A stretch of 64,000 bases of DNA from an uncultured Alphaproteobacteria bacterium (GTDB taxonomy: Bacteria; Pseudomonadota; Alphaproteobacteria; Rs-D84). Each line of letters begins with the position of its first letter. Position 1 is the first letter of the stretch. Of this stretch, positions 6,802 to 62,167 are shown in pieces. Below the pieces are notes generated by a model. The model saw only the letters and a program-made list of their open reading frames with translations, searched no databases and had not been told where the DNA came from. Position numbers and translations under genes: made by a program. The stretch is taken from contig CAKQTG010000001.1 in NCBI GenBank assembly GCA_934276735.1, forward strand, positions 350,134 to 414,133. The letters are read 5' to 3'.

Positions 6802-7212
6802 ATGTTCAAGATAGTTTCGTTTTTGGTGGCTTTATTTGTTACTGAGGTGGCAAATGCCACGCCGGTTGTGGTGGACTATATCATTGATGGCGATACGTTT
6901 GCCGGGCGGGTTGCATTGGCGGATGATACAAAAATTACGGTGCGTGTTCGTCTGATAAATGTTGATACGCCCGAAATCCATGGCGAGTGTGAATCCGAGA
7001 TTCGTGCGGCATTTGCGGCCAAGGCGCGATTGGCGGAATTGCTGCCAGTGGGGACCATGGCCGAATTACAAGAAATCAAGGACGATAAATACCTGGGGCG
7101 GATTGATGCGCGTGTGTTGGACGCGTCGGGTCGTGATGTTGGGAAAATATTGGTAAATGAAAAATTGGGCCGGCCATACAGTGGCGGCCACCGCGCCGGC
7201 TGGTGCGAGTAA
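6802..7212 (+). CDS. Secreted thermonuclease (staphylococcal nuclease, SNase-like) family protein
   Basis: Signal peptide, then VVDYIIDGDTF...VRVRLINVDTPE...KYLGRIDARV...VGKILVNEKLGRPY. The DGDT / D.PE / R motifs are those of the SNase fold. Confidence 0.78.
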   Translation: MFKIVSFLVALFVTEVANATPVVVDYIIDGDTFAGRVALADDTKITVRVRLINVDTPEIHGECESEIRAAFAAKARLAELLPVGTMAELQEIKDDKYLGRIDARVLDASGRDVGKILVNEKLGRPYSGGHRAGWCE

Positions 7213-7331
7213 CAGAGAGCAATGACGACACCCCGCACGCTATCGCGTGCACCCCTCTGGCCAGAGGGGAACTTGGTCCGCGACAGTGACTGACAACCAT
7301 TGCTCTCTGCTCTCTGCGCGTTGCTCTCTAA
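7213..7331. repeat. MITE-like mosaic palindromic element (families A and B)
   Basis: The termini AGAGAGCAATG (7214-7224) and CATTGCTCTCT (7298-7308) are inverted repeats. An internal hairpin is CCCCTCTGGCCAGAGGGG. Positions 7298-7331 are the exact reverse complement of 62225-62258. Confidence 0.85.
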
Positions 7332-7362
7332 AAAAAAACACCGCCAAACGGCGGTGTTTTTT
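7330..7362. terminator. Bidirectional terminator (SNase gene / plsC)
   Basis: A9-CACCGCC-AAAC-GGCGGTG-T6; it overlaps the plsC stop codon. Confidence 0.75.
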
Positions 7363-11653: not shown

Positions 11654-13549
11654 ATGAAAAAAGACTTGAAAATATCAACGTGGGCAATCGTGTGCGTGCT
11701 GTGTGCGGCGACTTCTGTGGCCAACGCGGCATCATCTGTGCGCAGTCTGGGTGGGTCTGGGACATACAACAGTGCGGCTGCTGCGTCTGGCAACGGTAAC
11801 GGTTCAGTGTCTGGTGTTCGTGGCGGCTCGCTGCGTGTTACGCCAACGTCCGATAAATCATCAACTGGTTCGACAAATTCATCTGCGACAACGACCAATG
11901 GTCGTGTTGCCACGGGTTCACGTTTGTCGATTGGCAAGTATTTAGGTGGTGGTACATCCGTCAGTGGGGGCAGTTCGATAAAACGTCCGACAGGCGATAC
12001 GTCGTCTGGTGGTTCTGGCGTTACCCCGGGCGAGGCGAGTGCCTTGCGCCGTGATATTGAAAACTTGAAAAATGCCGACGTTGCGCTGGGGGACAAGATT
12101 GACAGAAAACAGGACGTGCTGACACCGGCGTCTGATGGTTTTGTTGCGATTGATGATCGGACAAATGAAATCACGGTTGATATTGATCGGGTCAAGGATG
12201 CGATTGGCACAATTGCGGGCCAAGATGGGCGCGAGGTTGTAATTGGTTCCAATGAAACGGACCTGTTGTGGAAATACGATGGTGATACCGCGTGGCAGAA
12301 TTTGATTCCTAAATCTGAAATTATGGGTGCGCCTGGTGAGCGCGGACCCGAAGGGCCCGAGGGACCACGTGGGCCCGAAGGTCCGATGGGCCCCCAGGGA
12401 CCAAAAGGCGATGGGGCGGATGTTGATTTGACGCCGTATGCAAAGACTGCGGATGTTAATGCGGGTTTGGCGTTAAAGGCAGATGTTTCTGCTATGAACA
12501 ACGCGATTGCAAATGCAATTGCATTGGCGTTGGGCGAATATGCAAAAACGGTATATGTTGATGCCAAGTTAGCGGACAAACAGGATAAACTGTCCGATGC
12601 ACAAATTGCGGCAACGAATTCTGGTATCACTTCGACTGCGGTCGGTCAAATTGAAACAAATAAATCTGATATAGCGGCATTAAATACCGGCCTGGCGAAA
12701 AAGGCAAATTCTGACGATGTTTATGACAAAGCAGCGGTTGATGCAAAAATAGACGCGATTCCAGCCGGGGTCAAGGGCGACAAGGGTGACCCAGGTGAAC
12801 AAGGTCCCCAGGGTCCCCAAGGTGAACAAGGTCCAGCCGGCGAGAAAGGTGACAAGGGTGATACCGGTCCCGCCGGTCCTGCTGGTGAAAAGGGCGAGAA
12901 AGGCGATACAGGTCCCGCTGGTCCTGCCGGTGAAAAGGGCGAGAAAGGCGATACTGGTCCCCAGGGTCCCCAAGGTGAACAAGGTCCAGCCGGCGAGAAA
13001 GGTGACAAGGGGGATACCGGTCCCGCGGGTGTGGTTGCGGTTACCGGAACCGGTGACGCCAATGGTGTTGTAAATGGCATTACCTATGACGCGGCGACCC
13101 AGACGGTGACATATAACCGTGCGATGGTTGGCCTGGATAACATCAGTGCCGACGCGATTGACGATGTCCCGACGGCGGGTTCGAATAAACTGGTCCGTTC
13201 ATCTGGCGTGCAAGATGCAATTGCTGAGGCTGCGCTGAATGGTGAAATTACTTTAAAGGGATACGCGACCGAAACATACGTTAATAATGCGGTTGCTGCC
13301 AAACAGGATAAATTAAACGACGAACAAATGGCGGCGGCGAATTCTGGTATCAACGCGACATTGGTTGACACGTATAACAATTATGGCACGACGATTGCCA
13401 CGGCGGTTGCGACGGCGAACGACGCCAAAACAGATGCAGGCGAGGCGAAAAAAACGGCGGCAGGTAAGTTATCTGCGCCAGAAGGTAACGGAATGTTTCT
13501 GTATAATGGCAGCGGAAAACAGTGGACCGAGGTTAGTATTGTAGAATAA
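11654..13549 (+). CDS. Secreted collagen-like triple-helix repeat fibre protein (fibre paralog P1)
   Basis: 631 aa. Signal peptide ...SVANA. Two G-X-Y tracts of 10 and 29 triplets. Ala/Thr/Asp/Lys-rich flanks with [10 protein letters not shown] / AAKQDKLND repeats. The C-terminal module is ...[25 protein letters not shown]. Confidence 0.85.
12767..13030 (+). repeat. Collagen G-X-Y coding repeat tract with internal near-identical DNA units
   Basis: 29 consecutive Gly-X-Y codon triplets. An approximately 71-bp unit GGTCCCCAGGGTCCCCAAGGTGAACAAGGTCCAGCCGGCGAGAAAGGTGACAAGGG.GATACCGGTCCCGC occurs twice (about 12803 and about 12956). A shorter [15 protein letters not shown] unit is tandemly duplicated. 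Confidence 0.9.
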
Positions 13550-13637
13550 AGGGAAAACACCAACACGGAATTTGGACCAACATCACCGCCATAACGGGAA
13601 ACGGGCCCAAGTAAAAAGGGAAAGAAAGGAAAGAACG

Positions 13638-14813
13638 ATGAAAATAAAGAACATAGCTTTTTCTGGATTTATGGCGGCGATAATGTTGTCGGCTGGGGCC
13701 ACGGCGGCTAATGCCAAAATTGAAATCGCCAGCCGTCAATATGTTGATAAGATTGACAAGGCGACCACAGAAAAGATTACTAATTTGACCACAACAGTCG
13801 AAGGCAAGGCCGATAAAACCACGGTGAACGAATTGCAACAAAATGTTACCAATTTGTCCACGACGATTGATGGCAAGGCGGACGCGGCTGACTTGGATGG
13901 TTACTTGAAATCTGCGGATGCAGAAACAACATATGCCAAGAAAGACGCTGTAACAGGTGCCGAAAATGCTGCGAACGCGGCCAAGGAAGCGGCCGCTGCG
14001 GCCCAGGCCACGGCCAATGAGAACAAAACGGCAATCGGTGATGCGCAATCTGGTTTGACCAAGGGTGTCGCCGACGCGGCCCAGGCTGCCGCCGCCGCCG
14101 CCGCCGCCGCCGCCGCTGCAGACACCAGGGCCGGTAATGCTGCAACAGCTGCATCAACCGCCCAGAATACTGCAGTTTCTGCAAAGTCAACAGCGGAGGC
14201 GAACAAGGCTGCAATAGAAAATGAAACAACTGGTTTGGCTGCAACTAAAACGATTGCAGATAATGCTGCATCTGCTGCCGCAAAAAATGCCGGTGATATA
14301 ACCCAATTGAAAACAGACATCTCTGGCAAAGAAGATTCTAAAAACAAAATTACGGAAATTACCGATGTGAATTCTGGCTCGAACGAATTGTTCCCGACCG
14401 TTGGTGCGGTTATGAAGAAGATTTCAGGTCTGTCAGAATTGCCGGTCAACCCCAGCTTGATTGAAGATGGCACTTTGGATGGCTCTAAATTAAAAGATGG
14501 CACAGTTACAAAGACAAAGTTGTCTTCGGATGTTCAAACAACATTGGATAATGCCCAGACCGCCGAAGAAGTCACAGCTGCCATTACCGCGGCATTAAAT
14601 GGCTATACCAATACCGACGATTTGAACGCGGAATTGGCGAAAAAGGCGAATTCTGACGATGTTTACAATAAAACACAGGTCAATGAAAAATTTAACAAAA
14701 CTATTCCAACCCCAGAGGGCCCATGTGCTGCCGAATCCGGTCGTTGTGTTCTGTCTGTTGATAAGGCAACCAATGGCATGATGTGGATGGATGTAACCGC
14801 CCCATTGGAATAA
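13638..14813 (+). CDS. Secreted coiled-coil/fibre-like protein (fibre paralog P2)
   Basis: The track ORF is trimmed to ATG 13638 (RBS AAAGGAAAG). Signal peptide ...ATAANA, then IEIASRQYVD. Periodic ITNLTTTVEGKADKTTV / VTNLSTTIDGKADAADL repeats, a poly-Ala run, and the C-terminal module IPTPEGPCAAESGRCVLSVDKATNGMMWMDVTAPLE. Confidence 0.8.
   Translation: MKIKNIAFSGFMAAIMLSAGATAANAKIEIASRQYVDKIDKATTEKITNLTTTVEGKADKTTVNELQQNVTNLSTTIDGKADAADLDGYLKSADAETTYAKKDAVTGAENAANAAKEAAAAAQATANENKTAIGDAQSGLTKGVADAAQAAAAAAAAAAAADTRAGNAATAASTAQNTAVSAKSTAEANKAAIENETTGLAATKTIADNAASAAAKNAGDITQLKTDISGKEDSKNKITEITDVNSGSNELFPTVGAVMKKISGLSELPVNPSLIEDGTLDGSKLKDGTVTKTKLSSDVQTTLDNAQTAEEVTAAITAALNGYTNTDDLNAELAKKANSDDVYNKTQVNEKFNKTIPTPEGPCAAESGRCVLSVDKATNGMMWMDVTAPLE
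14088..14111 (+). repeat. (GCC)8 trinucleotide microsatellite inside P2 (poly-Ala)
   Basis: Eight perfect GCC units encode part of AAAAAAAAAAAA. Confidence 0.95.
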
Positions 14814-14883
14814 GCGAACCAGTCAACCAAAGATTTAAACAAACAAAATAAAAACAATAAACAAAAAAAGAAAGGAAAAAAAC

Positions 14884-16113
14884 ATGAAAAAATTAACCGC
14901 TGGAATATTTACAGTATTGCTGGGTGTTGTTGCGGCAAACTCGGCTGACGCAGCCCTGACATCACAAAAATACGTTGATGCAAAGGTGAAAGTGAACGCT
15001 GATGCGATTGCTGATTTGACAACAACTGTCGGGAACAAGGCTGATGCTTCGACTGTTACAGATTTATCTGAAAAAGTTACAGCAAATACAGGTGCGATCG
15101 CCAAAAAAGCAGACCAAACAGCCATGGAAACAGCATTGGCAGGAAAACAGCAGAAGTTGAATTCTACAAACTTCAAGAAAGATGGCACTGGTAACGTTAT
15201 CTCTGGTGTAACAGTTGATGAATCTGGTAATGTTACATTTGAAACATCCACCGTTGCAACCGCAGAAGGTTTGGAGAATTTGACAAATACAGTTGCTGAA
15301 CATACCACGGCATTGGGTACATTAAACGGCACCGCTGAAACCACTGGTTCTGTTGCAAACAAAATTGCTGCTGCAATTACAGCTGAAACAACACGTGCCG
15401 ATGGTGCATACGATGCCAAGGGCGCAGCCACCACAGCGGAAACAAATGCCAAGGCATACGCAGATGGTTTAGCCAAGAACTATGCAACCGCTGACCAAGG
15501 TAAAAAAGCCGATTCTGCTTTGCAAAAGACGGGGACATTGACCGCGGGTAATCTGCTGACGACGGATGAAAGTGGTAACATAATTGATGCAGGTAAAAAG
15601 GGTGCATTGGCGGCATTGGATACCGTAGACAAGGCGAATTTGAGTGAAGGTGTTCAGGCTTCGTTGGGCAAGGCAGATTCTGCGTTACAGGCAGCGGCTC
15701 TGAATGATTATGCAAAAACAACTGATGTAGCGGCAACATATGAAACAATTACAAATTCCAATGCAATCAAGAATACCGCTGACGCCAACAAGGCTGCAAT
15801 CGCAACTTTGAATGGAACAGGTGATGGTTCTGTGTCCAAGGCTGTTGCGGATGCCAAAACTGAATTGACAACAGCGATTGGTAAGAAACAAAATACTTTA
15901 ACTGCTGCTGATGTAACAGTAAGTGGTGGCGGTAATGTTATCACCGGTATTACTGCGGCTGATGGGAAAATTACAGCGACATTGGGAACAACATTGGGTG
16001 CTTTGGCAACAGCTGCGCCGGGCGAATGCAGCGAAGCAACCAAGTTCTGTGCGTTGACATTTAATGGCACAACTTATAAATGGGAAGTCATTGAACGTGT
16101 AGATGGTGAATAA
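14884..16113 (+). CDS. Secreted coiled-coil/fibre-like protein (fibre paralog P3)
   Basis: 409 aa. Signal peptide ...ANSADA, then ALTSQKYVD. Repeats: IADLTTTVGNKADASTV, AKKADQTAM, GKKADSAL, GKADSAL. C-terminal module AAPGECSEATKFCALTFNGTTYKWEVIERVDGE. Confidence 0.8.
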   Translation: MKKLTAGIFTVLLGVVAANSADAALTSQKYVDAKVKVNADAIADLTTTVGNKADASTVTDLSEKVTANTGAIAKKADQTAMETALAGKQQKLNSTNFKKDGTGNVISGVTVDESGNVTFETSTVATAEGLENLTNTVAEHTTALGTLNGTAETTGSVANKIAAAITAETTRADGAYDAKGAATTAETNAKAYADGLAKNYATADQGKKADSALQKTGTLTAGNLLTTDESGNIIDAGKKGALAALDTVDKANLSEGVQASLGKADSALQAAALNDYAKTTDVAATYETITNSNAIKNTADANKAAIATLNGTGDGSVSKAVADAKTELTTAIGKKQNTLTAADVTVSGGGNVITGITAADGKITATLGTTLGALATAAPGECSEATKFCALTFNGTTYKWEVIERVDGE

Positions 16114-16202
16114 ATAAAAAATACTGTGTCGGGGGCGGGGGATTCCCCGACACAGGTTCAGGGATTGTGGTTAAAATATAAAAATAAAAAGGTTTTAGGG
16201 TT

Positions 16203-17645
16203 ATGAAAAAATTATCTGGATTGTTAGCTGTTTCATTGATTGCGATTATGATGGCACCCGCGGCCCGTGCAGACATCGCATCAACCGGGTTTGTCACAAC
16301 AGCATTGAATGGTAAAGAAAACGTAACGAATAAGGTAACTAATGCATCTGGTTACACAGATGATATAACATCGCCAGATAAGTATCCGAGTATGGCAGTA
16401 GCGAATGATATGGTAAAGCAGGCGGTTAAATCGGTGAACGATGCAAAGCTGGATGAGGTTTTTGATAAATCACTGAACAATGTAATGGTAACCGATGCCG
16501 CCGGAGTTGTGAGTCCATCTGAGATTAAGACGGACGGTTCAGGTAATGCAGTTACTGGCATTGAGGTTAAGAATGGTGTATATACCCTGAACAAGGAGAC
16601 AACGTTCGCGACCAAGGAACAGTTGGGTACGACAGACACAAACGTTACGAATTTGACGACTCGTGTTTCTACGGCCGAGGGGACGATCAAAACATTGAAA
16701 ACAAGCAAGCAGGATAATTTGACCGCTGGCACCGGTATCAAGATTGAGAATAATACAATCAGCACGGATGGATTGGCAACTGATGCCGATTTAACAACGT
16801 TGCAGGCAACCGTTGCAGGGCATACGACAGCTATTGATAAGTTAGATGGCGCGGCTACGGTTACTGGATCTGTAAAACAACAGATTGAGACGGCGAAAAA
16901 TGAATTAACAACAAGTATTGAAGCTAATACAACCGCGGCGGCCAATGCAAAATCAGCGGCAGATGCAGCCCAGGCGACAGCAAATAAGGCAGTTGTGGCC
17001 AATACCGCGATTACAGGTGGCACCAAGACAAAAATTACATATGACGCGAAAGGTTTGGTAACTGGTGGTGCTGACCTGACTGCTGCCGATATCCCGGCGG
17101 GGTTAATCAAGAACGGGACAAATGTCACAGTTTCGCGTAATGCAACGACTGGCGTCGTGACGATTAGTTCGGCGGATACTAAATACACATTGCCAACCGC
17201 GACGGATACAGTCCTGGGTGGTGTAAAGGTTGATACAGCAATGAGTGATACCAGCACGAACCCTGTTCAGAACAAGGTAGCGAATGTGGCCATTGCAGAT
17301 GCGAAGAAAGCGGGTACTGATGCAGCTACCGCGGCGGCCAATGCAAAATCAGCGGCAGATGCAGCCCAGGCGACAGCAAATAAGGCAGTTGTGGCAAATA
17401 CCGCGATTACAGGTAACACCAAAACAAAAATTACATATGACGCGAAGGGGCTGGTAACTGGTGGTTCTGACCTGACTGCGGACGATATCCCGGCATTGGA
17501 AACGTCCAAGATTACTGGGTTGGATACGGCATTGGCGGGTAAAATTCCTGTGCCATCGGAGACTAATTCAAAGGGTACCTTGGTATTGACATATAATACC
17601 ACTACGCAAAAATATGCATGGGAATCAATTGGTCGTGGTGATTAA
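16203..17645 (+). CDS. Secreted tail-fibre-like repeat protein (fibre paralog P4)
   Basis: 480 aa. Signal peptide ...PAARA, then DIASTGFV. Two copies of AAANAKSAADAAQATANKAVVANTAITG.TKTKITYDAKGLVTGG.DLTA.DIP, then SKITGLDTALAGKIPVPSE...TTQKYAWESIGRGD. Confidence 0.8.
   Translation: MKKLSGLLAVSLIAIMMAPAARADIASTGFVTTALNGKENVTNKVTNASGYTDDITSPDKYPSMAVANDMVKQAVKSVNDAKLDEVFDKSLNNVMVTDAAGVVSPSEIKTDGSGNAVTGIEVKNGVYTLNKETTFATKEQLGTTDTNVTNLTTRVSTAEGTIKTLKTSKQDNLTAGTGIKIENNTISTDGLATDADLTTLQATVAGHTTAIDKLDGAATVTGSVKQQIETAKNELTTSIEANTTAAANAKSAADAAQATANKAVVANTAITGGTKTKITYDAKGLVTGGADLTAADIPAGLIKNGTNVTVSRNATTGVVTISSADTKYTLPTATDTVLGGVKVDTAMSDTSTNPVQNKVANVAIADAKKAGTDAATAAANAKSAADAAQATANKAVVANTAITGNTKTKITYDAKGLVTGGSDLTADDIPALETSKITGLDTALAGKIPVPSETNSKGTLVLTYNTTTQKYAWESIGRGD
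16305..16626 (+). repeat. 322-bp cassette shared between P4 and P5 (copy in P4)
   Basis: It matches 18061-18382 with only 5 mismatches by eye, all of them non-synonymous. Confidence 0.9.
16932..17098 (+). repeat. Intragenic 167-bp direct repeat in P4, copy 1
   Basis: ACCGCGGCGGCCAATGCAAAATCAGCGGCAGATGCAGCCCAGGCGACAGCAAATAAGGCAGTTGTGGC... recurs at 17328-17494 with a handful of substitutions. Confidence 0.9.
17328..17494 (+). repeat. Intragenic 167-bp direct repeat in P4, copy 2
   Basis: See copy 1 at 16932-17098. Confidence 0.9.
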
Positions 17646-17699
17646 TGTTTGATTTTTGTGGTGCGGACGGATTTGTCTGTGCGCACCATGGAAATAGAC

Positions 17700-17728
17700 T
17701 TGTCACAATGTGACGAATTTGGTATCAT
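17700..17728 (+). promoter_or_regulatory. Candidate promoter of P5 with overlapping palindrome
   Basis: TTGTCA, 17-nt spacer, TATCAT. The -35 region lies within the inverted repeat TGTCACA-A-TGTGAC, a possible operator. Confidence 0.4.
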
Positions 17729-17763
17729 AGTTCAGAGAGATTAAATATACAGAATGTAGCGTT

Positions 17764-18531
17764 ATGAGATGTGTTAAAAGTATCTTTACCGTTTCGATTT
17801 TTGCCATGTTGATTGCAACCGGTGCGCGTGCGGAAATTGTGTCCAAGACACAACTTGATAGCACGATTGTTGCTGGCACAAATGTTACGATTGAAAAGCC
17901 AACATCGGGCACAAACAGTGGCAAAATTGTTATCAGTGCCACGGATACGAATACGACATATACCACCGGAACCGAGACTTATTCTGGGACAACAAAGTTG
18001 TATACCGCGACAGGCGATAGCACCGACGGAACAATGACCCGTGGCGCAATTACAACGGCGTTGAATGGTAAAGAAAACGTAACGAATAAGGTAACTAATG
18101 CATCTGGTTACACAGATGATATAACATCGTCAGATAAGTATCCGAGTATGGCAGTAGCGAATGATATGGTAAAGCAGGCGGTTAAATCGGTGAACGATGC
18201 AAAGCTGGATGAGGTTTTTGATAAATCACCGAACAATGTAATGGTAACCGATGCCGCCGGAGTTGTGAGTCCATCTGAGATTAAGACGAACGGTTCAGGT
18301 AATGCAGTTACTGGCATTGAGGTTAAGAATGGTGCATATACCCTGAACAAGGAGACAACGTTCGCGACCAAGGCACAGTTGGATGCCTTGGACAGCACGT
18401 CCACAGGCACGGGGGCGGTTGTGACGAATGTTACCCAGACAGATGGCAAGGTCACGGTGACCAAGGGAAATGTCCAGGTTCCAGTTGGATCATCAACGGC
18501 GACAACATATGCCGCGATTTGGATTGAATAA
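17764..18531 (+). CDS. Secreted fibre-like protein (fibre paralog P5, short)
   Basis: 255 aa. Signal peptide ...TGARA, then EIVSKTQLD. The central 107 aa are almost identical to P4 residues about 35-141. C-terminus: VQVPVGSSTATTYAAIWIE. Confidence 0.8.
   Translation: MRCVKSIFTVSIFAMLIATGARAEIVSKTQLDSTIVAGTNVTIEKPTSGTNSGKIVISATDTNTTYTTGTETYSGTTKLYTATGDSTDGTMTRGAITTALNGKENVTNKVTNASGYTDDITSSDKYPSMAVANDMVKQAVKSVNDAKLDEVFDKSPNNVMVTDAAGVVSPSEIKTNGSGNAVTGIEVKNGAYTLNKETTFATKAQLDALDSTSTGTGAVVTNVTQTDGKVTVTKGNVQVPVGSSTATTYAAIWIE
18061..18382 (+). repeat. 322-bp cassette shared between P4 and P5 (copy in P5)
   Basis: See 16305-16626. Confidence 0.9.
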
Positions 18532-18535
18532 AAGG

Positions 18536-18562
18536 ACGCGCCATCGGCGCGTTTCTTGTTTT
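18536..18562 (+). terminator. Rho-independent terminator after P5
   Basis: ACGCGCC-ATC-GGCGCGT followed by a T-rich tract. Confidence 0.6.
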
Positions 18563-18962
18563 AGAGTGCAGGGTCAACGATTTTGCGCATGCGTGCCTTT
18601 TAAACCACTACCCCGGCCGCCTGGGGCGGCCACCCCTTCGCCAGCGAAGGGGAATTTTCATGCCATAGGGCACTCACCCCTTGTCATTGCGAGCATAGCG
18701 CGGCAATCCACAGAAAGACCACCCCGTCCTGGCGGACACCCCTCCACGCAATCACCCACAAAATCTAGCGATTTTGCGGGGCTCGATGGAGGGGAACTTA
18801 GTCCGCAACAGAAAGAACAAGTGCGCCATTGGCGCACGTCATTGCTCTCTGCTCTCTACACTCTGCTCTCTAAAATAGACGACATCCCGACGCGTTGCGT
18901 CACCCCGGCTCTCCAGAGGGGGAACTTTACTAAGTCACTCTATCACTAAATCACCATATCAC
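18563..18962. repeat. Non-coding tract built from mosaic palindromic repeats (families A-D)
   Basis: It contains a 48-nt unit at 18605-18652 (reverse complement of 54199-54244 and 62811-62858), GTCATTGCGAGCATAGCGCGGCAATCC, GGAGGGGAACTTAGTCCGCAACAG, CATTGCTCTCTGCTCTCTACACTCTGCTCTCTAA and CCAGAGGGGGAAC. The track ORF 18470-18949 is a read-through of these repeats. Confidence 0.85.
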
Positions 18963-22316: not shown

Positions 22317-22664
22317 ATGCTGATTGATAAATTGACCTATTACCTGGTAACAAGCAAAGACGCGCGCGTCGCAGATAAATATATCTATGAACGTATCAAG
22401 GATAAAGAGCAAGAAAGTATTCAACGGGCAGAATTGGCATACAAAAATATGATGCGTGGCACCCCGGAATGCCATTGTATTGGTTTTGATGCGTCTGGGA
22501 TGAAGGAACGCTGCCAACACTACAAGGATAACAGACCGTGTGATAATTCCAAGTGTGCGCTGTATGGCGACAATATGGAATATTATGAGGCGCGTCAAAA
22601 AATGGCATGCTATGCTGCATTGCGTCGTGACTTCTGGAAAACGGGCAAGAAACACCAAAAATAA
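22317..22664 (+). CDS. Hypothetical small Cys-containing protein, IKYYL-family paralog a (1 module)
   Basis: 115 aa with no signal peptide. N-terminus MLIDKLTYYLVTSKDARVADK. Cys module ECHC...C-x8-C-x4-C-ALY...YYEARQK...DFW. The RBS AAAGGAG is 22 nt after the lepA stop. Confidence 0.7.
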   Translation: MLIDKLTYYLVTSKDARVADKYIYERIKDKEQESIQRAELAYKNMMRGTPECHCIGFDASGMKERCQHYKDNRPCDNSKCALYGDNMEYYEARQKMACYAALRRDFWKTGKKHQK

Positions 22665-22693
22665 AAAGTCGGATTAAAACGCGGGGGATTGAA

Positions 22694-23473
22694 ATGTTGT
22701 TCAAAACGATAAAATATTACCTGGCAACAAATGCAGAAATGCGTGCGGCGGATCGTGCGGCGTTTCGCGCATTGTGGAATGATATGCAGAAAAAACGCAT
22801 AAAACTGGAAGAGGTCAAGACCGAATTGTCGCATCGCGGTGGATGTGTGCATCGCTATTTGAAAAAGCCCGGTGGAATTTGGAGTGAAATATTGCCTGGC
22901 AAAATTGTAGAGAAGCATTGTGAGAGGTTTTGGATTTTTTCTTATAATGACGGATGTTTGGAAAAAACATGTATGTATTACCCCGAGTATGTAAAGTATC
23001 GCGATGTGTATCGTGAGTATGCCAAGGCCAAGGAAGATGTAAAAGCATTTTGGGAAGATAGAAAGGTATCACGTATCGAGGTCGCCAAGTATCCAAACAG
23101 TCCTGCAGCCCAGACAGCAATAGATACCCTGGACGCCCAATGTGCGGATTTGTATCGCGAACTTGAACAGGCCCGGCAGGCAATAACTTGTTATGAATTC
23201 GCTACGCCAGAGTGGGTGCTCCCACGGAAAAACGGCTGTTTTGTAGATGTGTCGTATAGTTCTAAATCATTTGACACCAGTGATGATTACCCGGGAATGA
23301 TATGGTCACGAATGGAACACTGTCCGGAATTTAGTGTGCCATGCACACGCGTCGATTGTTATTACAGGGCGCGAAATCAACACTATGCCAATGTTCGGGC
23401 GCAATACAGAAAGGCGTGCGAGGCATACAGATTGATGACGGAACGCGAGTGGAAACCATTAAATGAACGCTAA
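22694..23473 (+). CDS. Hypothetical Cys-containing protein, IKYYL-family paralog b (2 modules)
   Basis: 259 aa. N-terminus MLFKTIKYYLATNAEMRAADR. Modules: GGCVHRY...C-x11-C-x4-C-MYY...FW and NGCFVDVSY...C-x6-C-x4-C-YY...EW. RBS GGGGGA. Confidence 0.7.
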   Translation: MLFKTIKYYLATNAEMRAADRAAFRALWNDMQKKRIKLEEVKTELSHRGGCVHRYLKKPGGIWSEILPGKIVEKHCERFWIFSYNDGCLEKTCMYYPEYVKYRDVYREYAKAKEDVKAFWEDRKVSRIEVAKYPNSPAAQTAIDTLDAQCADLYRELEQARQAITCYEFATPEWVLPRKNGCFVDVSYSSKSFDTSDDYPGMIWSRMEHCPEFSVPCTRVDCYYRARNQHYANVRAQYRKACEAYRLMTEREWKPLNER

Positions 23474-23489
23474 GTTCAAGGGGGCGAAA

Positions 23490-24245
23490 ATGATGTTGAA
23501 AAGAATTAAATATTATTTGAATACGGATGCCACACAGCGTGCGCAAGATAGGGCGGATTTTAAACAGTTGGTCCATGATGCCAAGGAAAAAGAGGCGCGT
23601 GTAAAGGATATGGAACATGCGCTGGTATGCAGTGGCGAGCATATTGGGGCGACACGCGGAATATTTGATGATTTACTGGATAATACAGATACGCGTTGCG
23701 CGGCGTTCCAGCCAGAAATACAGGGGCCGTGCATGGATAAAGAATGTCCGTATCTGGGTGAAAATCATAAATATTTTGACGCGTTTCGTGCGTATGGGAC
23801 GGCCCTGGTCAGGGAAAAGGAATTCTGGCCAGAGCGTTGTGCGTTGCGTATTGCCCAGGCGGCGCGTGCCCGGCAAGAACGGAATACGGAAATTGCACAT
23901 TTAAATGCGCAATGCGCCGATTTGGAAAATGAATTGACGTTGGCGAAATCTGCGATATCGACACATGTGTGTATCAATCCAAACAGTGGCCCGCTGGTAA
24001 AAATGGGCTGCTTTGTGTCGGCGTATTATGGGGCTGGTGATTGGCCAATATTGGGCCTGGATGAACCATCGCACAGTTTTACTGTAAATGAAAAATGCAC
24101 AAAATTTGCGATGCCATGCGAACGCAATTGCCCATATCGCGAGAAAAATGCGCATTATGCCGATGTTTTAAATCGCTATGATGCGGCATGTGCGGCATAT
24201 CGTGCGATTGCTGGCAAGGATTGGATATCAACAAAAACAAAATAA
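23490..24245 (+). CDS. Hypothetical Cys-containing protein, IKYYL-family paralog c (2 modules)
   Basis: The track ORF 23463 is trimmed to ATG 23490 (RBS AAGGGGG). N-terminus MMLKRIKYYLNTDATQRAQDR. Modules: C-x10-C-x4-C-PY...FW and MGCFVSAYY...C-x6-C-x3-C-PY...DW. It shares L(D/N)AQCADL with paralog b. Confidence 0.7.
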   Translation: MMLKRIKYYLNTDATQRAQDRADFKQLVHDAKEKEARVKDMEHALVCSGEHIGATRGIFDDLLDNTDTRCAAFQPEIQGPCMDKECPYLGENHKYFDAFRAYGTALVREKEFWPERCALRIAQAARARQERNTEIAHLNAQCADLENELTLAKSAISTHVCINPNSGPLVKMGCFVSAYYGAGDWPILGLDEPSHSFTVNEKCTKFAMPCERNCPYREKNAHYADVLNRYDAACAAYRAIAGKDWISTKTK

Positions 24246-24261
24246 CAATTGGGGGACGATT

Positions 24262-24696
24262 ATGAATTTTTTTGCCAAAATAAAATATTATTTAACAACC
24301 AGTGCCGCCCAGCGCGCACAAAATAGTGCCGTGTTGGAAGACCTGGAACTGAAATGTTTCGAGACGGGGCGTGACATGGAACAGGCGCGCGAGGCGTTGC
24401 GTATCGTGGCCGATGGAATGTCCCAAACAGAAGTTTTAAGAAAGGCGTGTGTTGTATATCTGACGTATCCGAACAATATGTTGGGCGGAGATGACCTGAG
24501 CAGATATACACCCATGTTGGTAAGGGAGAATAATTGTCGGTATTTTGCCGAAGGCGACAAAAAATGTCCGCGCAAGGACTGTGCCTTTTATGAAAAAAAT
24601 ATCGCATATTTTGCGGCCAAGGACCGCTATGACGCCGCCGTTGCTGCACGTGATGCGTTTTTGGCACGTGCAACGGGGCGCGCTAAAAACAAATAA
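24262..24696 (+). CDS. Hypothetical Cys-containing protein, IKYYL-family paralog d (1 module)
   Basis: The track ORF 24178 is trimmed to ATG 24262 (RBS GGGGGA). N-terminus MNFFAKIKYYLTTSAAQRAQN. Module: KACVVYL...C-x9-C-x4-C-AFY...YFAAKDRY. Confidence 0.7.
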   Translation: MNFFAKIKYYLTTSAAQRAQNSAVLEDLELKCFETGRDMEQAREALRIVADGMSQTEVLRKACVVYLTYPNNMLGGDDLSRYTPMLVRENNCRYFAEGDKKCPRKDCAFYEKNIAYFAAKDRYDAAVAARDAFLARATGRAKNK

Positions 24697-24708
24697 AGGA
24701 TTAAATAA

Positions 24709-25101
24709 ATGAACATTAAAAAAATAAAATATTGGCTGAAAACGCCGGCTGGTGTTCGACGCCAGAACGCGGGCGAATATCGCACGCTGTGTATGAAATA
24801 TGGGGTTGCAAAAAATAAATATGCCCGTGCATTAAACCGGATTAGTGTTGATTTGGATTATTACGAAGATCCGGCCGACGTATCTGGTTGTGTAAAGTTT
24901 AAGATTCTGGAAAAGGTGCCGGGTGTTAAATACACAACAACACACACATGCCCGCACTTTATTCACGGTGTTTCGTGCAATCAACAGAATTGCCCGTTGC
25001 GCCCCGCGAATAATGAGTGCGCAAAATTGTACACTGTATGCGAATTGGCACTGAATAAAAAAGCAATATTTTGGGAAAATATATACAGTAAGGTAAGATA
25101 A
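24709..25101 (+). CDS. Hypothetical Cys-containing protein, IKYYL-family paralog e (1 module)
   Basis: 130 aa. N-terminus MNIKKIKYWLKTPAGVRRQN. Module: SGCVKFK...C-x8-C-x4-C-PL...IFWENIY. RBS AAAGGA. Confidence 0.7.
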   Translation: MNIKKIKYWLKTPAGVRRQNAGEYRTLCMKYGVAKNKYARALNRISVDLDYYEDPADVSGCVKFKILEKVPGVKYTTTHTCPHFIHGVSCNQQNCPLRPANNECAKLYTVCELALNKKAIFWENIYSKVR

Positions 25102-25102
25102 A

Positions 25103-25519
25103 ATGTTGATACAGAAGTTGAAATATTATTTAAAGACATCTGCGGCCCAGCGTGCGCATGACAGACGAGATTACCAGGCGGTCTTGAATCATTATGATGA
25201 TGCGTTGGCGGATTTGAAAGTGGCGCGCGATGCGATGACCGCGGTGGTTGACGACAAAGAAACGGCCGACGACACATGGGCGTGCGTTGTTGAATACACA
25301 TATCAATCGCCAATGGCGGGGGCAATTATGGGATTGCGTTCTGCACCACTGACAGCGCGCGAAGATTGTTGTTTCTTGAACGAAGAAGGTTGTTGTATTT
25401 TTAGTGGTTGCAAAAATCATGGTAAAAATGTGCGCTATTTTTACCAGAAAAAAATTTTGGATTTTTGGCGTCAAAAACGTGATACCTTTTGGGCCCAGAA
25501 ATACGCAAATGTAAAATAA
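25103..25519 (+). CDS. Hypothetical Cys-containing protein, IKYYL-family paralog f (1 module)
   Basis: 138 aa. The ATG is 1 nt after the stop of paralog e. N-terminus MLIQKLKYYLKTSAAQRAHDR. Module: WACVVEY...CC-x6-CC-x4-C...YFYQKKILDFW...FW. Confidence 0.7.
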   Translation: MLIQKLKYYLKTSAAQRAHDRRDYQAVLNHYDDALADLKVARDAMTAVVDDKETADDTWACVVEYTYQSPMAGAIMGLRSAPLTAREDCCFLNEEGCCIFSGCKNHGKNVRYFYQKKILDFWRQKRDTFWAQKYANVK

Positions 25520-25543: not shown

Positions 25544-26539
25544 ATGGCGCACCAGTTCTTTTTTAATCCGTTCATATTGGACAACCTGCCGGCACCCAGT
25601 GCGGGTTTTGATGTTGTTCAGGATTTGTCAGAACCGCGTTTACGCATGTATGTGACCAGCCGTGGGGTCAAGACGTTCTTTGTTCGTCATCGTGTGCGTG
25701 GGCGCGATCGTCGCTTTATCATCGGAAATTATCCGGATATGGATATCGAAGATGCGCGCAGTGCCGTGGCTGACATTTTGGCGCGTGCTGATGCACCGGT
25801 GCCGACGCGTCGTCGCAAAATTAAATTTTCAAAATTTGTTGATTTGTATATGACGAATCGCGTGCGTCGCGTGCCGGCGTCGCGTGAAAAATTGCGTCGT
25901 GCGATAACGCGCCATCTGGGGCGTCTGGCGGATAAAAACATGTCCGATATTACGCGCGATGATTGTGAACGTGTGATATCAAATATCGATGGCGTTGCAA
26001 TACGTGGTCGCATGCAGGAATTATTACAGAGCATGTTCGCATATGCCGCAGAAAACGGGTACGTGGAAAACATAATTTCTGATTTGCCCAAGGTCGCGCA
26101 AAACCGTCGTGTGCGTCCGCTGAACATATTTGCGTTTCATCAATTGATGGATTCGATAAATGCGGAAAAATCACCTGTTCTGCGTGCGGCGTTTTTGATG
26201 TTGGTGTATGGATTTGCGCCAAAGTCACGCGTGTTTGCAATGCAGTGGCGTGACCTGGATTTCAATCATTATATGTGGAACGATATGCCACTGTCAGACC
26301 AGGCGGTTGTGCTGTTACAGGATTTGCCGCAAAATGGTCGCTGGGTTTTCCCGGGGCGTGGCCGTGGGCATTTGACCGATCCACGTCGTGCGTGGCGTGC
26401 GGTTGCGGTTGCGGCTGGAATACCGACACTGACTATGGATGATGTTCATAAATTTTTAATGCGCAGATTGGTCTGGTCGCCTGACCGCGAAGATTTTCGC
26501 GAAAATATGAATTCTGTGCTGAACGAAATTATGGCCTAA
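25544..26539 (+). mobile_element. Tyrosine recombinase (P4-like integrase family), probably degenerate or inactive
   Basis: The N-terminal arm-binding-type segment (LPAPSAGFDVVQDLSEPRLRMYVTSRGVKTFFVRHRVRGRDRRFIIGNYPDMDIEDAR) and core-binding region are recognisable. In the C-terminal part, the expected HxLRRT box reads MDDVHKFLMRR, and no LGH...Y catalytic-Tyr box precedes the stop. At 331 aa it is short for the family. Confidence 0.6.
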
Positions 26540-52469: not shown

Positions 52470-52556
52470 AGAGAGCAATGCGCAGAGAGCAGAGAGCAAT
52501 GAAGCGCGCCACCGGCGCGCTTGCTTTTTTACCGTCGCAGTCTAAATTGCTCTCTG
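52470..52556. repeat. Family A mosaic element between rpsK and rpoA
   Basis: AGAGAGCAATGCGCAGAGAGCAGAGAGCAATG ... internal hairpin AAGCGCGCC-ACC-GGCGCGCTT ... ATTGCTCTCTG. The termini form an inverted repeat. Confidence 0.8.
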
Positions 52557-53167: not shown

Positions 53168-54196
53168 ATGATTGAAAAGAACTGGATGACCCTGATAAAG
53201 CCGAAAAAGCTGAATATCACGGTTGATGAACATAACCCAAATTTAGCAAAACTGGTTGCTGAACCATTGGAAAAAGGATTTGGACTGACATTGGGCACGG
53301 CGTTGCGTCGCGTGCTGTTGTCGTCATTGCAGGGTTGTGCCCCAATCTATATCAAGATTGACGGTGTGCAACACGAATTTTCCAGCCTGCAAGGTGTCCG
53401 CGAAGACATCACAGATATTATCTTGAACCTGAAAGGTGTTTATTTCAAAGCATTGACCGAAGGTCAACACAAGGCAACCCTGAAAGTCAAGGGGCCGGCC
53501 GTTGTGACCGCAGGTATGATTGAAACATCTGGCGGGGTCGAGGTTATGAACAAAGACGCGGAAATCTGCACACTGGATAAAAACGCGAATTTGGATATGG
53601 AAATCACATTGGCAACCGGCCGCGGTTATGTGCCGGCGTCTGCACATGCAGATGGTCTGCCACTGGGTGTGATTCCGGTTGATTCAATTTTCTCGCCAAT
53701 TTTGAATGTTGCGACGGCTGTATCGGAAACCCGTGTTGGCCAGTCGACAGACTATGACAAATTGGAAATGACCGTCAAAACCAATGGTTCTGTTTCGCCC
53801 GAAGATGCAATCGCATTTGCGGCGCGTATTTTGACAGACCAGTTGGTTGTCTTTATCAATTTTGAAGATCCGGCGCAAATCAATGCTCCGACCGAAGAAG
53901 AAAAGGCCAAGGACGCATTGCCGTTTGATCCGAAATTGTTAAAGCATGTTGATGAATTGGAATTGTCTGTTCGTGCGAATAATTGCTTGAAGAACGACAA
54001 AATCAATTGGTTGGGCGAATTGGTCCAAAAGACCGAAGCAGATATGTTAAAGACCCCGAACTTTGGCCGCAAGTCATTGAACGAAATCAAGGTTCAGTTA
54101 GAGGCTATGGGTCTGGGACTGGGCATGGAAGTACCGGGTTGGCCACCAGAAAATATTGCAGAGTTGGCCAAGAAGTACGAAGACCCTTATAAATAA
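53168..54196 (+). CDS. rpoA: DNA-directed RNA polymerase alpha subunit
   Basis: 342 aa. ...[27 protein letters not shown]..., C-terminal domain ...[22 protein letters not shown]...[18 protein letters not shown]. Confidence 0.96.
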
Positions 54197-54198
54197 AT

Positions 54199-54244
54199 CC
54201 CCTTCGCTGGCGAAGGGGTGGCCGCAGGGCGGACGGGGTAGTGG
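54199..54244. repeat. 48-nt-type palindromic unit (family C) after rpoA
   Basis: CCCCTTCGCTGGCGAAGGGGTGGCCGCAGGGCGGACGGGGTAGTGG is nearly identical to 62811-62858 and to the reverse complement of 18605-18652. Confidence 0.85.
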
Positions 54245-60025: not shown

Positions 60026-62167
60026 ATGCAGAATTTGCTGAAAATGTTTGGTGTATCGGGCGCGCTGTTGGGGCTGGTTGCCACGGTTTCTGGGGCGGAC
60101 GCCGCCACAGGACGTGCGGCATACTCGAATATTCGTACGTCTGTAAATGCAAATACCGCGATTGGTCGTATGCCGTCGATGCCGACATTGCCGATAAATT
60201 CTGTGGGAAATTTGTCGCCAGATTTGCCGTCTGATGGTGGCACAACGCCCGATAATCCCAAGCCCGATGATCCAAAGCCGGACGATCCGAAACCAGATGA
60301 CCCCAAACCGGAATGCCCAGATGGTGGTGTTAAAAATTCAACGTATACAGTTGAAAACTGTATGACGGATATTCTGTCGTGTGTCAACGGTGGCGCGTTA
60401 CCGGGCGGTCTGAACGATTTGTTTAACGAAGATTTGCGTAACGCAATCGTCAACGGTATGGGATTGTGCACGGTCCAGGTGGAAAAGTGTATCGCAACCG
60501 TTCGTCGCAATTGCAGAAATGTTTATCGCACATCGGCCGACGTGTGGTTGGATTTCAATTCCCGCCGGATTCAGCCGGAATATTACAACTTTGTTTTGCG
60601 CAAAACGGGTCTGACCCCGAACCAGGCGGAAAACACATGCCGTTTGTTGGACAAGAACACATATGGCACATCGTTTAATGCGGTCGCCAATAATGGCGGT
60701 GTGACATCAGAATACAATAAACGCACCGGTGCGTATAACAGTCAACAGGGCAATGTCTTGGTCAAAAATAATCCCCAGGGTGTCCAGGTGAACGATAATA
60801 ACCCCGGCGTTGATGGCCAGCGTGGCCACTATGCGCGTTGGGACGCAACAACGGCGGATTGCTGGATTCGTGTTGCCGCGTATAACAAAGACAGCCAGAT
60901 TAAAAACAGCTGGTTGTTCGGTGCCGCCGGTGACGACAAAATGGCCGAAGCCTGGAAACAGGCTGGTGACACATTTACGTGTAACAAGGACCTGTTTGGA
61001 TTTTCATTGATGAACCAAACTAGCACGGCCGCGGTTGTCGGTATTGGTGGTGGAACATTGGTTGGTGCTGGTATCGGTGCAATTGCCGGACATGGTGCGC
61101 GCAATTTTGATTGCAGTAATGATGGCCAGGTGAAAAAACTGGGTGAACAGTTAAAGGCGTCGGGCAAGATTGCAATCTTGAACGAATATCTGGACGCGAG
61201 TAATCGTATCAGCAATAATTTCACAACATTGTCGCGGGCCCAGTGCGAGGATATCGTTGACCTGGCAGCATTGTATCCACAGTTGAGCTCGGCATTGTCG
61301 GATTGCGAAAGTATCAGCAACGTTTCGACATTGAATACGTGGACATTGACGCTCCATTGGGTGTCGACAGAACAGGAGAAAGCTCAAAACGCCCAAGCTA
61401 TAATGGAAAGCGTTTTCCCAAAGTGTAAAGGCATGACATTGCAACAGTGTGGCAACCTGTTGGCAAACCAGTGCCAGATGGGAACAAGTGACTGTATTGA
61501 ACAGTTAAAGACCGAAGGATATATTGATGGCGATTATGCACAGAACTTTACCCTTGATGTTAAAAGCAAGGAAGAACTGATTGGCAAGTGCACGTTCAAA
61601 CCGATAAACATTGCTAAAAGAAACGGTGAAATGATTTATTGCCAGAATCCAGAAGGCCAGGGTTGTCAAACCGCCACGGATCTTAGCTCTGATGTCAGAC
61701 GGCTGGGCGGGGCGTTGGATGATTTGGAAATCCTGAACGGTGAAAAATCCAATATGGCGAAAAGTATCGGTATCGGTGCAGCGGCGGGTGCTGGCACGGG
61801 TGGATTGGCCACGGCGATTACGGCATTTGTCGAACGCAGTAACATCAACTGTCGCGTTGGCGATGGTCTGGAACAGGTCGGATTCGGAAAATCGTATTCA
61901 ATTGGCACGCTGAAAGATTTCTATGTGAAATGGAATCTGCACCTGCCGGATACAATTGCGCCGACGGCAAATGTAACTGATTGCACGACATGGCGGGCGG
62001 CATGTGGAACGCTGACTGATTTGAAACAGTGCGCTGCGGCCCAAGTAAATTACCGGCCGGCCGACGCCCCAACAATCAGATTGATTCAGGCGGCGTGCAC
62101 CCCATCGGGCAGTGTGTGTATCGAAAACTATCCGGTTGCGGTATCATACGGCGCGTGCCAAGAGTAA
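60026..62167 (+). CDS. Large Cys-rich secreted/membrane protein, hypothetical
   Basis: 713 aa with RBS AGGAG and signal peptide ...VSGADA. A (PDDPK)x4 linker precedes a Cys-rich body (ENCMTDILSCVNGG...LCTVQVEKCIATVRRNC...). Two Gly/Ala-rich hydrophobic segments are present (AAVVGIGGGTLVGAGIGAIAG and SIGIGAAAGAGTGGLATAITAFV). Confidence 0.75.
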   Translation: MQNLLKMFGVSGALLGLVATVSGADAATGRAAYSNIRTSVNANTAIGRMPSMPTLPINSVGNLSPDLPSDGGTTPDNPKPDDPKPDDPKPDDPKPECPDGGVKNSTYTVENCMTDILSCVNGGALPGGLNDLFNEDLRNAIVNGMGLCTVQVEKCIATVRRNCRNVYRTSADVWLDFNSRRIQPEYYNFVLRKTGLTPNQAENTCRLLDKNTYGTSFNAVANNGGVTSEYNKRTGAYNSQQGNVLVKNNPQGVQVNDNNPGVDGQRGHYARWDATTADCWIRVAAYNKDSQIKNSWLFGAAGDDKMAEAWKQAGDTFTCNKDLFGFSLMNQTSTAAVVGIGGGTLVGAGIGAIAGHGARNFDCSNDGQVKKLGEQLKASGKIAILNEYLDASNRISNNFTTLSRAQCEDIVDLAALYPQLSSALSDCESISNVSTLNTWTLTLHWVSTEQEKAQNAQAIMESVFPKCKGMTLQQCGNLLANQCQMGTSDCIEQLKTEGYIDGDYAQNFTLDVKSKEELIGKCTFKPINIAKRNGEMIYCQNPEGQGCQTATDLSSDVRRLGGALDDLEILNGEKSNMAKSIGIGAAAGAGTGGLATAITAFVERSNINCRVGDGLEQVGFGKSYSIGTLKDFYVKWNLHLPDTIAPTANVTDCTTWRAACGTLTDLKQCAAAQVNYRPADAPTIRLIQAACTPSGSVCIENYPVAVSYGACQE

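Follow-up and report, generated by a model that had tools for sequence, protein, structure and literature searches.

A fixed chromosomal locus of putatively exported, fibre-like proteins with phage tail-fibre modules in Candidatus Enterousia

Among the described systems closest to the genes reported here is the MAT (mosaic adhesive trimer) family of Bdellovibrio bacteriovorus, a chromosomal multigene set of signal-peptide-bearing, phage-tail-fibre-like trimeric proteins of mosaic and chimeric composition (Caulton et al. 2024, PMC10769870). MAT proteins have a beta-rich, conserved domain some 130 amino acids (aa) long right after the signal peptide, shafts that are beta-helical and bear capping loops, and C-terminal tips that vary and often carry an S74 chaperone-protease (PMC10769870). 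Here we describe five tandem fibre genes, P1 to P5 (11654-18531, + strand), in a 64,000-nucleotide stretch of DNA (the window) that comes from the chromosome of Candidatus Enterousia (order Rs-D84, Alphaproteobacteria) and is part of a 484-kb metagenomic scaffold. The chromosomal multigene arrangement, the signal peptide, the mosaic build and the similarity to phage modules recur in these genes, and a trimeric shaft on the cell surface is predicted for them. In both cases the bacterium must contact other cells; no surface anchoring element is described for MAT (PMC10769870), and none was recognised in the five Enterousia proteins. We propose, with a probability of roughly 0.55, that the Enterousia proteins are Sec-exported, parallel homotrimeric fibres built from phage shaft modules and displayed on the surface for contact with a partner or host.

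The two families differ in architecture. No counterpart of the MAT N-terminal domain was found in P2-P4 and most of their relatives, in which the mature chain starts 1-6 residues before a YVD beta-layer and coiled coil, and in an AlphaFold2 (AF2) monomer model P3 begins as helix. A Pfam scan found no S74 domain, and in place of a variable tip the C-terminal skeleton is kept within each gene position, or slot. Unlike MAT, the Enterousia fibres are largely alpha/beta coiled coil with small conserved C-termini, and they occupy one syntenic locus, an arrangement that has not been described for the MAT genes. A sequence search of PDB with P4 alone gave no match, the deposited MAT tip structures included.

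Trimeric autotransporter adhesins (TAAs; type Vc, such as YadA, BadA and OMP100) also combine a Sec signal peptide with a long, parallel trimeric coiled-coil stalk containing beta-layer or neck-like motifs in a modular mosaic, and the motifs and heptads of such a stalk are present in the fibre proteins. The TAA anchor, a YadA-like C-terminal beta-barrel (PF03895) of four strands per chain with an aromatic last residue, was not found by Pfam and NCBIfam scans of the five proteins, whose C-termini are short, include charged residues and end in E, D or R. As they have a C-terminal module of ~30 aa with charged residues and no YadA-type anchor, the type Vc display mechanism cannot apply. Collagen-like proteins (Streptococcus Scl1/Scl2, Legionella Lcl, Bacillus BclA) resemble P1 in having G-X-Y tracts flanked by trimerisation-type segments. 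P1 falls short of the NCBIfam cut-offs for SclA (85 bits of 400), Lcl (77 of 500) and SclB (75 of 325), all of them collagen-driven scores; its PDB match to BclA is confined to the collagen tract, and it has no LPXTG motif.

Phage fibres and tailspikes (HylP1 2C3F, the depolymerases 9m4c/9m4d, and fibres on IMG/VR contigs) share with the Enterousia proteins an ATKxYVD beta-layer, a TKITYDAKGLVT..DL...DIP repeat, Ala-rich coiled-coil cassettes and collagen-flanked segments. In the phage relatives examined, which are encoded in phage genomes, the N-terminus is a virion-attachment region and there is no signal peptide, whereas the Enterousia proteins have a signal peptide in that position and a housekeeping locus. 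Neither a phage structural module nor an N-terminal attachment domain accompanies the latter, and their neighbourhood is one of housekeeping genes in 37 species. The concept of such a fibre is known from MAT, TAAs and collagen-like adhesins. The Enterousia proteins form a large unannotated family for which we found no Pfam or NCBIfam model and no description, nor any mention of the fibre locus in the papers on Enterousia or Rs-D84 that we consulted; the family is distinct in its architecture, its fixed locus organisation and a display route without a recognised device.

Rs-D84, the order that includes Enterousia, is an uncultured gut lineage with genomes mostly <1 Mb, without respiration, the tricarboxylic acid cycle, flagella, most biosynthesis or standard transporters (PMC12306168). 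It has been proposed to depend obligately on a partner organism; the partner and the means of contact are not known, and the bacteria are widespread in human and animal guts (PMC12306168). The streamlined genome suspected from the DNA alone is confirmed, and the bacterium is predicted to depend on a partner. Ordinary chromosomal genes (TolB, FtsEX, Pal, RbfA, LepA, a ribosomal protein operon, EF-G and EF-Tu) are present on the scaffold and in the window. Scanned with a P3 family alignment, a set with one genome for each GTDB species yielded 80 loci, retrieved through the signal-peptide word MKKLTAGI of the third slot, nearly all of them in Candidatus Enterousia, "uncultured Rickettsiales" or Alphaproteobacteria metagenome-assembled genomes (MAGs) from the guts of humans, ruminants, horses and chickens. 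One locus lies on a circular MAG of 958,618 bp. Homologues in public metagenomes number >600 for P3, >1200 for P4 and 240 for P5. When 1.84 billion representative proteins were searched with a slot-3 profile, 1321 clusters (50% identity) matched, of which 469 had E <= 1e-10, and in a cluster look-up the single named match among the distant hits was an Alphaproteobacteria MAG.

Two of the retrieved contigs bear other labels in public MAGs, namely "Bacteroides fragilis" (L005, CAVGNU010000018.1) and "Clostridia bacterium" (L045, JAZSGM010000027.1). L005 has full Enterousia synteny (TolB, FtsEX, Pal, the outer-membrane protein (OMP) gene and fibre genes) and L045 has one fibre gene; both are probably mis-binned.

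The preliminary description of this DNA had recognised five co-directional open reading frames (ORFs), and these were recovered at the same coordinates, all on the + strand, with a public gene caller in agreement on the source scaffold. They encode P1 (11654-13549, 631 aa; ORF calls, Pfam and PHROG), P2 (13638-14813, 391 aa; ORF call and motifs), P3 (14884-16113, 409 aa; ORF call, homologues and AF2 monomer), P4 (16203-17645, 480 aa, ending ...YAWESIGR; ORF call and PHROG) and P5 (17764-18531, 255 aa; ORF call), separated by gaps of 70-118 nt. The five proteins consist mostly of Ala, Thr, Gly, Lys, Asp and Asn, in keeping with the A/T/K/N/D-rich composition reported before, and the features of the cluster are far beyond chance. 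P1 has a signal peptide (aa 1-25), a conserved N-terminus, a Gly/Ser/Thr-rich linker, heptads, two collagen tracts and a W-containing C-terminus. P2 runs from a signal peptide and cap through four GKAD-type units to a C-x6-C ... W module. In P3 the signal peptide and cap are followed by helices broken by short beta hairpins, by four KAD-type units and by a disulfide-capable C-terminal beta-hairpin module. P4 continues from signal peptide and cap into a module common with P5, heptads and two tail-fibre repeats, and P5 is Thr/Val/Ser/Gly-rich and beta-rich.

All five proteins have a Sec signal peptide, as had been stated, in which a basic n-region precedes 15-19 hydrophobic core residues and an A-x-A site can be read directly (ANA in P1 and P2, ADA in P3, ARA in P4 and P5). 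By a crude test, 170 of the 184 ORFs that occupy the equivalent interval in 37 species also have a Sec-type signal peptide. Sec export of the fibre proteins is well supported by these signal peptides and by a conserved C-terminal Cys pair, whose invariance fits folding outside the cytoplasm, and signal-peptide cleavage would be expected to follow. As the loci were retrieved with the MKKLTAGI word, the slot-3 signal peptide looks invariant in part through ascertainment, and conservation was measured in slots 1 and 2 instead. Across orthologues (L003-L082), the slot-1 and slot-2 signal peptides (11654-11728 and 13638-13715) have a median identity of 0.58-0.60, above the 0.33-0.47 that the TolB, Pal and OMP signal peptides reach in these genomes, although conservation is much lower in the mature part of the fibres. 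Synonymous codon variation in slot 3, within a set ascertained via the peptide word itself, places the conservation at the protein level. The conserved 5' ends could possibly serve as recombination anchors or reflect a dedicated targeting step.

A beta-layer is a beta segment of three residues by which a trimeric coiled coil is interrupted or capped; its consensus is [aliphatic]-A-T-K-[polar]-[D/E], and a variant, IENKADKAD, is known from the stalk of a TAA (Hartmann et al. 2016, PMC4786415). In the tail-fibre hyaluronidase of a S. pyogenes prophage (2C3F), HAATKAYVDKAISELKKL makes the transition from beta structure to coiled coil, and the proteins identified with a beta-layer are all homotrimers, except for the pseudo-threefold SLH domain (PMC4786415). 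The N-proximal I-A-S-K-G-Y-V-D of the Enterousia proteins, followed by heptads, matches the ATKAYVD beta-layer of 2C3F and is a predicted beta-layer element. The motif had been reported in each of the five proteins; it stands in P2 (IASRQYVD, aa 30-37, 13725-13748), P3 (LTSQKYVD, aa 25-32, 14956-14979) and P4 (IASTGFVT, aa 25-32, 16275-16298), is degenerate in P5 (IVSKTQLD) and is missing from P1, which has a different N-terminus that is kept across species. A profile of 27 such N-terminal caps found as its best PDB matches the trimeric capsule-depolymerase tailspikes of phages (ATKGYVDTAVSPLATTIEA), at a borderline E = 0.016-0.05.

The V.GKAD...V, AKKADQTAM and KKANSDDVY units correspond, by their sequence, to the stalk variant of the beta-layer. 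These too had been ascribed to every protein; P2 and P3 have four each (0.6-0.7 in shuffles), but they are rare in P1, P4 and P5. Both KAD-type and ASKxYVD motifs are enriched over shuffles, and per 100 aa the five proteins contain K[AE]D 0.37 times, the other proteins of the window 0.04 times. In segments of P1-P4, but not in P5, heptad periodicity lies above the 99th percentile of shuffles. The AF2 monomer of P3 (pLDDT 67, pTM 0.26) has long helices broken by short hairpins, with a terminal beta hairpin over CALTFN/YKWEVI. The two collagen tracts described earlier for P1 are real, with 10 G-X-Y triplets in the first (aa 225-254, 12326-12415, from the tract read-out) and 30 in the second (aa 372-461, 12767-13036, internally repetitive DNA of repeat family D1). 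With these 40 triplets, P1 scores 65.3 bits against PF01391 (Pfam Collagen, 4e-18; gathering cut-off 27.2). Collagen tracts occur in just 5 of the 184 related ORFs, all in slot 1, and are therefore no feature of the family. It is the beta-layer motifs, the N-cap profile, the heptads, the P3 model and the P1 collagen that lead us to call the proteins trimeric, and the beta-layer motifs and collagen tracts support the earlier trimer proposal independently.

Further resemblances were considered and set aside. Positions 123-158 of the P3 family profile (window ~15250-15355), ATSEELGNLQTTVAEHTTALDTLNG, weakly match heptad repeat 1 (HR1) of the SARS-CoV-2 spike (E = 0.006 for whole sequences, obtained on constructs with repeated HR1); homology was rejected in favour of compositional or heptad resemblance, a convergence of trimeric coiled-coil patterns. 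PDB sequence matches of P5 to RuvB-like protein 2 (best E = 0.03) are weak and were taken as chance, as were those of the OMP to antibodies. The C-terminal pattern IP.P...G..Y....W looks like the T4 fibritin foldon, and a profile search of PDB found no foldon-tagged chain.

A shared C-terminal module, also part of the preliminary description, proved real but degenerate among the five paralogs, with a single invariant Trp. Within each slot its conservation between species is strong. In P3 the module (aa 379-405, 16018-16098; PGECSEATKFCALTFNGTTYKWEVIER), delimited from 120 homologues and the AF2 monomer, has the skeleton P..C......C.L........WE...R (P379 C382 C389 L391 W400 E401 R405), which is invariant in those homologues across species, and the loop between the two Cys residues and the hairpin turn are variable, as would suit a fibre tip. 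The P5 C-terminus, ...VQVPVGSSTATTYAAIWIE, is nearly invariant across species. All that the C-terminal module has in common with the foldon is a terminal beta hairpin, predicted by the model and possibly analogous.

The proteins are related in sequence to modules of phage fibres. P1 matches many PHROG tail-fibre families, and its match to phrog_5073 (aa 370-585, 3.5e-38) reaches past the collagen region; in P4, aa 387-446 match tail-fibre phrog_7389 (5.8e-8). The motif TKTKITYDAKGLVTGG.DLTA.DIP occurs twice in P4, as had been noticed (aa 274-298 and aa 406-430, 17022-17096 and 17418-17492), with SKITGL after the second copy. Its earlier identification as a phage tail-fibre repeat is borne out by the phrog_7389 match and by IMG/VR viral contigs, on which the P4 repeat region has at least 579 relatives. 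Some P4 homologues, 590-830 aa in length, lack a signal peptide; their N-terminus is typical of phage fibres, and they contain the repeat 4-6 times. Collar (PF07484) or head-fibre (PF11133) domains are present in some of these homologues, and one adjoins an integrase and an amidase (lysin). An initial scan of viral contigs with the P3 alignment found none, a weak test as its patterns were signal-peptide words; repeated with the mature region, it gave one short cassette match. This 27-residue P3 cassette (AKAY.DGLAKNYATADQG.KADSALQ) has 89% identity with a segment of a fibre-like, Ala-rich protein encoded on a viral contig of 146 kb, where an adjoining ORF contains DIATKAYVD. In the simplest reading of these similarities, the Enterousia fibres would be phage-fibre shafts in which a signal peptide replaces the virion-attachment domain of the phage relatives examined.

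The position of the locus is fixed. In blastp comparisons of the window proteins with all ORFs of the 80 loci, gene order is constant, with TolB...FtsX-FtsE-Pal on the - strand, the OMP gene, the fibre genes on the + strand, and then DedA, RbfA, (GNAT) and LepA. About 80 loci show at least part of this order, and both flanks are captured in 37 species-level genomes, in which the interval between OMP and DedA spans 2.4-15 kb and holds 2-10 nearly all co-directional ORFs of ~140 to 930 aa. The gene directly upstream of P1 (10875-11591, + strand, 238 aa, C-terminus ...GIRYEF) had been taken for an outer-membrane beta-barrel, and Pfam agrees (OMP_b-brl, 1.3e-5). It lies immediately before the fibre genes on the same strand in 65 related loci at a median identity of 52%, a level that fits surface exposure of the OMP. 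As it is invariably directly upstream, it is a candidate docking partner for the fibres, although it may equally be merely a neighbouring major outer-membrane protein. Comparison across related genomes, which the preliminary description had recommended, showed a fixed housekeeping neighbourhood with no intact prophage around the cluster.

Sequence turnover sets the fibre genes apart from this neighbourhood. The median blastp score per residue is 1.4-1.9 bits for TolB, FtsX, FtsE, Pal, DedA, RbfA and LepA, 1.04 bits for OMP and 0.12-0.35 bits for the five fibre genes. In the closest genome (L004), the flanks are 90-94% identical in nucleotides and 96-99% in protein, and P3, P4 and P5 are 48-60% identical. 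Gene ends and intergenic DNA align with L004 at 93-95% (for example 16105-16295 and 18336-18581), and the gene centres at 14165-14623, 15513-16105, 16295-16932 and 18071-18336 do not align. For three pairs of cassette types, the 120 slot-3 homologues include every one of the four possible combinations of N- and C-terminal type. Sequence is also shared within the locus (300 nt at 98% between P4 and P5, 167 nt at 94% within P4, and 56 nt at 82% between P1 and P2). The P4 stretch at 16296-16595 and its P5 counterpart at 18052-18351 (repeat family D2) belong to a region with 78% protein identity over 145 aa, the rest of the two genes being unrelated or much more diverged. This identity points to recent gene conversion or duplication between the paralogues.

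The diversification of paralogs assumed at the outset was not borne out, as the five genes are not recent duplicates; the slots are conserved across the loci examined, and variation arises mainly from cassette replacement inside a slot. Slot 1, the first gene after OMP, starts MKK.LKISTL.IVCVLC. Slot 2 starts MKVKNIAFSGFMAAIL...IASK.YVD and ends C...SG.CVLSV....W..VT.P, slot 3 starts MKKLTAGI...IASKGYVD and ends C..P.NKCVLT.NN..Y.WEVIER, and the last slot ends ...TKGNVQIPVGS..ATTYA.IWVE. As each slot has its own signature across species, the five genes are old, differentiated lineages between which gene conversion persists.

From these observations a mechanism can be proposed. After export and cleavage by signal peptidase, the mature chain would open with an A-S/T-K-x-Y-V-D beta-layer that caps and registers a trimeric coiled coil. 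The shaft would be a mosaic of heptads, GKAD-type beta-layers and beta hairpins, with collagen in P1 and the tail-fibre repeat in P4, and the chain would end in a small Trp-centred beta module, with a conserved Cys pair in slots 2 and 3, that probably locks the three chains together or forms a tip or docking element. The fibres would reach the surface by a route without a recognisable device, might dock to the upstream outer-membrane beta-barrel protein, and would contact the partner cell or host surface on which the bacterium relies. Recombination would create the variation, with the centres replaced as cassettes and the conserved ends and intergenic DNA acting as homology arms. Surface exposure is suggested by the extreme variability that recombination creates beside conserved neighbours, by lengths and copy numbers that vary widely, and by module types with which phages bind cell surfaces, and adhesion to a partner would be the most economical function for a partner-dependent bacterium.

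A serious rival to adhesion, even if we hold it to be doubtful, is that the fibres form a variable protective coat driven by immunity or phages, for evasion of IgA or as a decoy or mask for phage receptors, and are not specific adhesins. Export, hypervariability and cassette exchange fit a coat equally well, conserved termini with variable centres are found in other variable surface antigens, and phages of the same community carry related fibres. However, a genome of <1 Mb that keeps 2-10 fibre genes at one locus in the species examined speaks against a coat, as do the conserved identities of the slots, which suggest differentiated functions. The tail-fibre repeat modules, too, belong to receptor-binding fibres in phages, although a dual role would be compatible with this.

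Several points count against adhesive surface fibres as proposed here. No outer-membrane anchoring or secretion device was recognised in the Pfam and NCBIfam scans and the terminal read-out of the five proteins, which leaves surface display in a diderm unexplained. Ends that are conserved around a variable middle differ from the usual adhesin layout, in which the distal tip varies. The trimeric state is deduced from motifs and analogy. Fold searches with monomer models were uninformative (P3 against PDB and BFVD) or weak, and foldon homology of the C-terminal module was rejected after hhalign of its profile against the foldon sequence gave a probability of 0.2%. The sample was defined by the slot-3 word, so that "every genome" stands for every genome having a slot-3 gene. 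In structure searches of the kind suggested in the preliminary description, the P5 model, at low confidence (pLDDT 58), had phage tail fibres as its top Foldseek matches, weak at E = 8e-4, and the P3 model matched nothing in PDB or BFVD. Monomer models of fibrous trimers are unsuitable queries for structure searches.

The question of display also bears on two explanations in which the proteins are not attached to the cell surface. Neither a lipobox in the signal peptides nor an LPXTG motif in the C-termini was found on direct reading of the five proteins, and Pfam and NCBIfam scans found no domain besides Collagen, hence no YadA-type anchor and no Peptidase_S74. Alphaproteobacteria are not known to have Braun's lipoprotein, and the proteins could be its functional analogues, that is, periplasmic trimeric spacers or tethers of the envelope. 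A Sec signal peptide without a recognisable device for outer-membrane translocation or anchoring, the adjoining Pal, TolB and OMP genes, and a trimeric coiled-coil architecture would all suit such a role. We consider it quite unlikely, because a spacer of fixed geometry would not be expected to vary so widely in length and gene number, to turn over roughly tenfold faster in sequence than the neighbouring genes, or to contain collagen and phage receptor-fibre modules. There is likewise a slim chance that the proteins are released into the medium as soluble trimeric binding proteins, for instance of a lectin-, bacteriocin- or tailocin-fibre-like kind that acts at a distance. The missing anchor and a mature N-terminus without a separate domain ahead of the coiled coil agree with release, but no toxin, enzyme or tailocin genes lie in or adjoin the locus, and the conserved slot-specific N- and C-terminal elements suggest docking to a fixed cellular partner.

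That the locus is a decayed prophage or a domesticated tail-like particle, with these genes as its tail fibres, is very unlikely in spite of the clear module-level similarity to phage fibres, since no capsid, tail, baseplate, lysis or terminase genes lie in the window around the cluster, the genes occupy the same spot between housekeeping genes in the 37 species, and they have signal peptides, unlike the phage relatives examined. The chromosomal origin inferred earlier therefore holds. The accompanying statement that no integrase flanks the cluster did not; an integrase-like gene (25544-26539; phrog_1, 1.6e-26; Arm-DNA-bind_3) lies 7 kb downstream, with DedA, RbfA, GNAT and LepA in between. 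As this gene is kept at the same position after LepA in 40 species, it is no evidence of a prophage, and a prophage reading based on it was ruled out. For everything computable, the preliminary description was largely right.

Returning to contact fibres, we tentatively suggest that the OMP and the fibres together could form an attachment organelle of Rs-D84/Enterousia, consisting of domesticated phage receptor-binding fibres that signal peptides redirect to the bacterial surface, with an undescribed mode of display that uses neither an autotransporter barrel nor a lipid or sortase anchor and possibly involves docking to the co-conserved small beta-barrel protein, and with cassette centres that set which partner cell or host surface a given strain can parasitise. 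If so, fibre sequences could predict or fish out unknown partners, and recombinant fibres could serve as partner-finding probes. The locus takes up ~7 kb of a tiny genome, its place is unchanged across the species examined and nothing else in its neighbourhood evolves as fast, which makes it a testable candidate for a contact apparatus, the best so far. It would be a second, independent case, after MAT of Bdellovibrio, in which a bacterium that depends on other cells makes its surface fibres out of pieces of phage tail fibres, and with a different architecture.

Right after the P5 stop codon lies a strong terminator-like hairpin (18534-18554, + strand) of 9 pairs followed by a T run; it comes from a consensus scan alone and is probably where the transcription unit or units end. 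P5 and DedA are separated by a spacer of 430 nt (18532-18962) pieced together from short dispersed repeats (REP/MITE-like), GC-rich and able to form hairpins, that recur at ~62225-62859, 54195-54244, 52470-52554 and 7298-7333, and in either orientation at other intergenic sites in related genomes. An ORF of 159 aa (18470-18949) that might be taken for a sixth gene is almost certainly spurious, as its DNA consists of dispersed intergenic repeats and it has no family matches. An Rfam scan of the window found one tRNA and nothing else.

Between LepA and the integrase-like gene, six tandem small paralogues (22317-25519; 115-260 aa, Cys-rich, without signal peptide) each begin with a motif like (K)IKYYL.T.A.QRA.DR and have no family matches of note. 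They are present in 4-10 of the 40 genomes that have the integrase-like gene and so make up a second variable gene array. Two large secreted proteins (55870-58812, 980 aa; 60026-62167, 713 aa), both very rich in Cys, have N-terminal regions rich in Ser/Thr/Arg or in Pro, followed at some point by a hydrophobic stretch of mainly Gly/Ala, and match nothing in Pfam or PHROG; they stand outside the fibre family and may represent additional proteins of the envelope or surface. Directly after TolB, a small secreted protein (6802-7212, 136 aa) weakly resembles staphylococcal nuclease (PF00565 at E = 0.004, which falls short of the Pfam cut-off), and a secreted nuclease at this place, if real, would suit a nucleotide-scavenging lifestyle.

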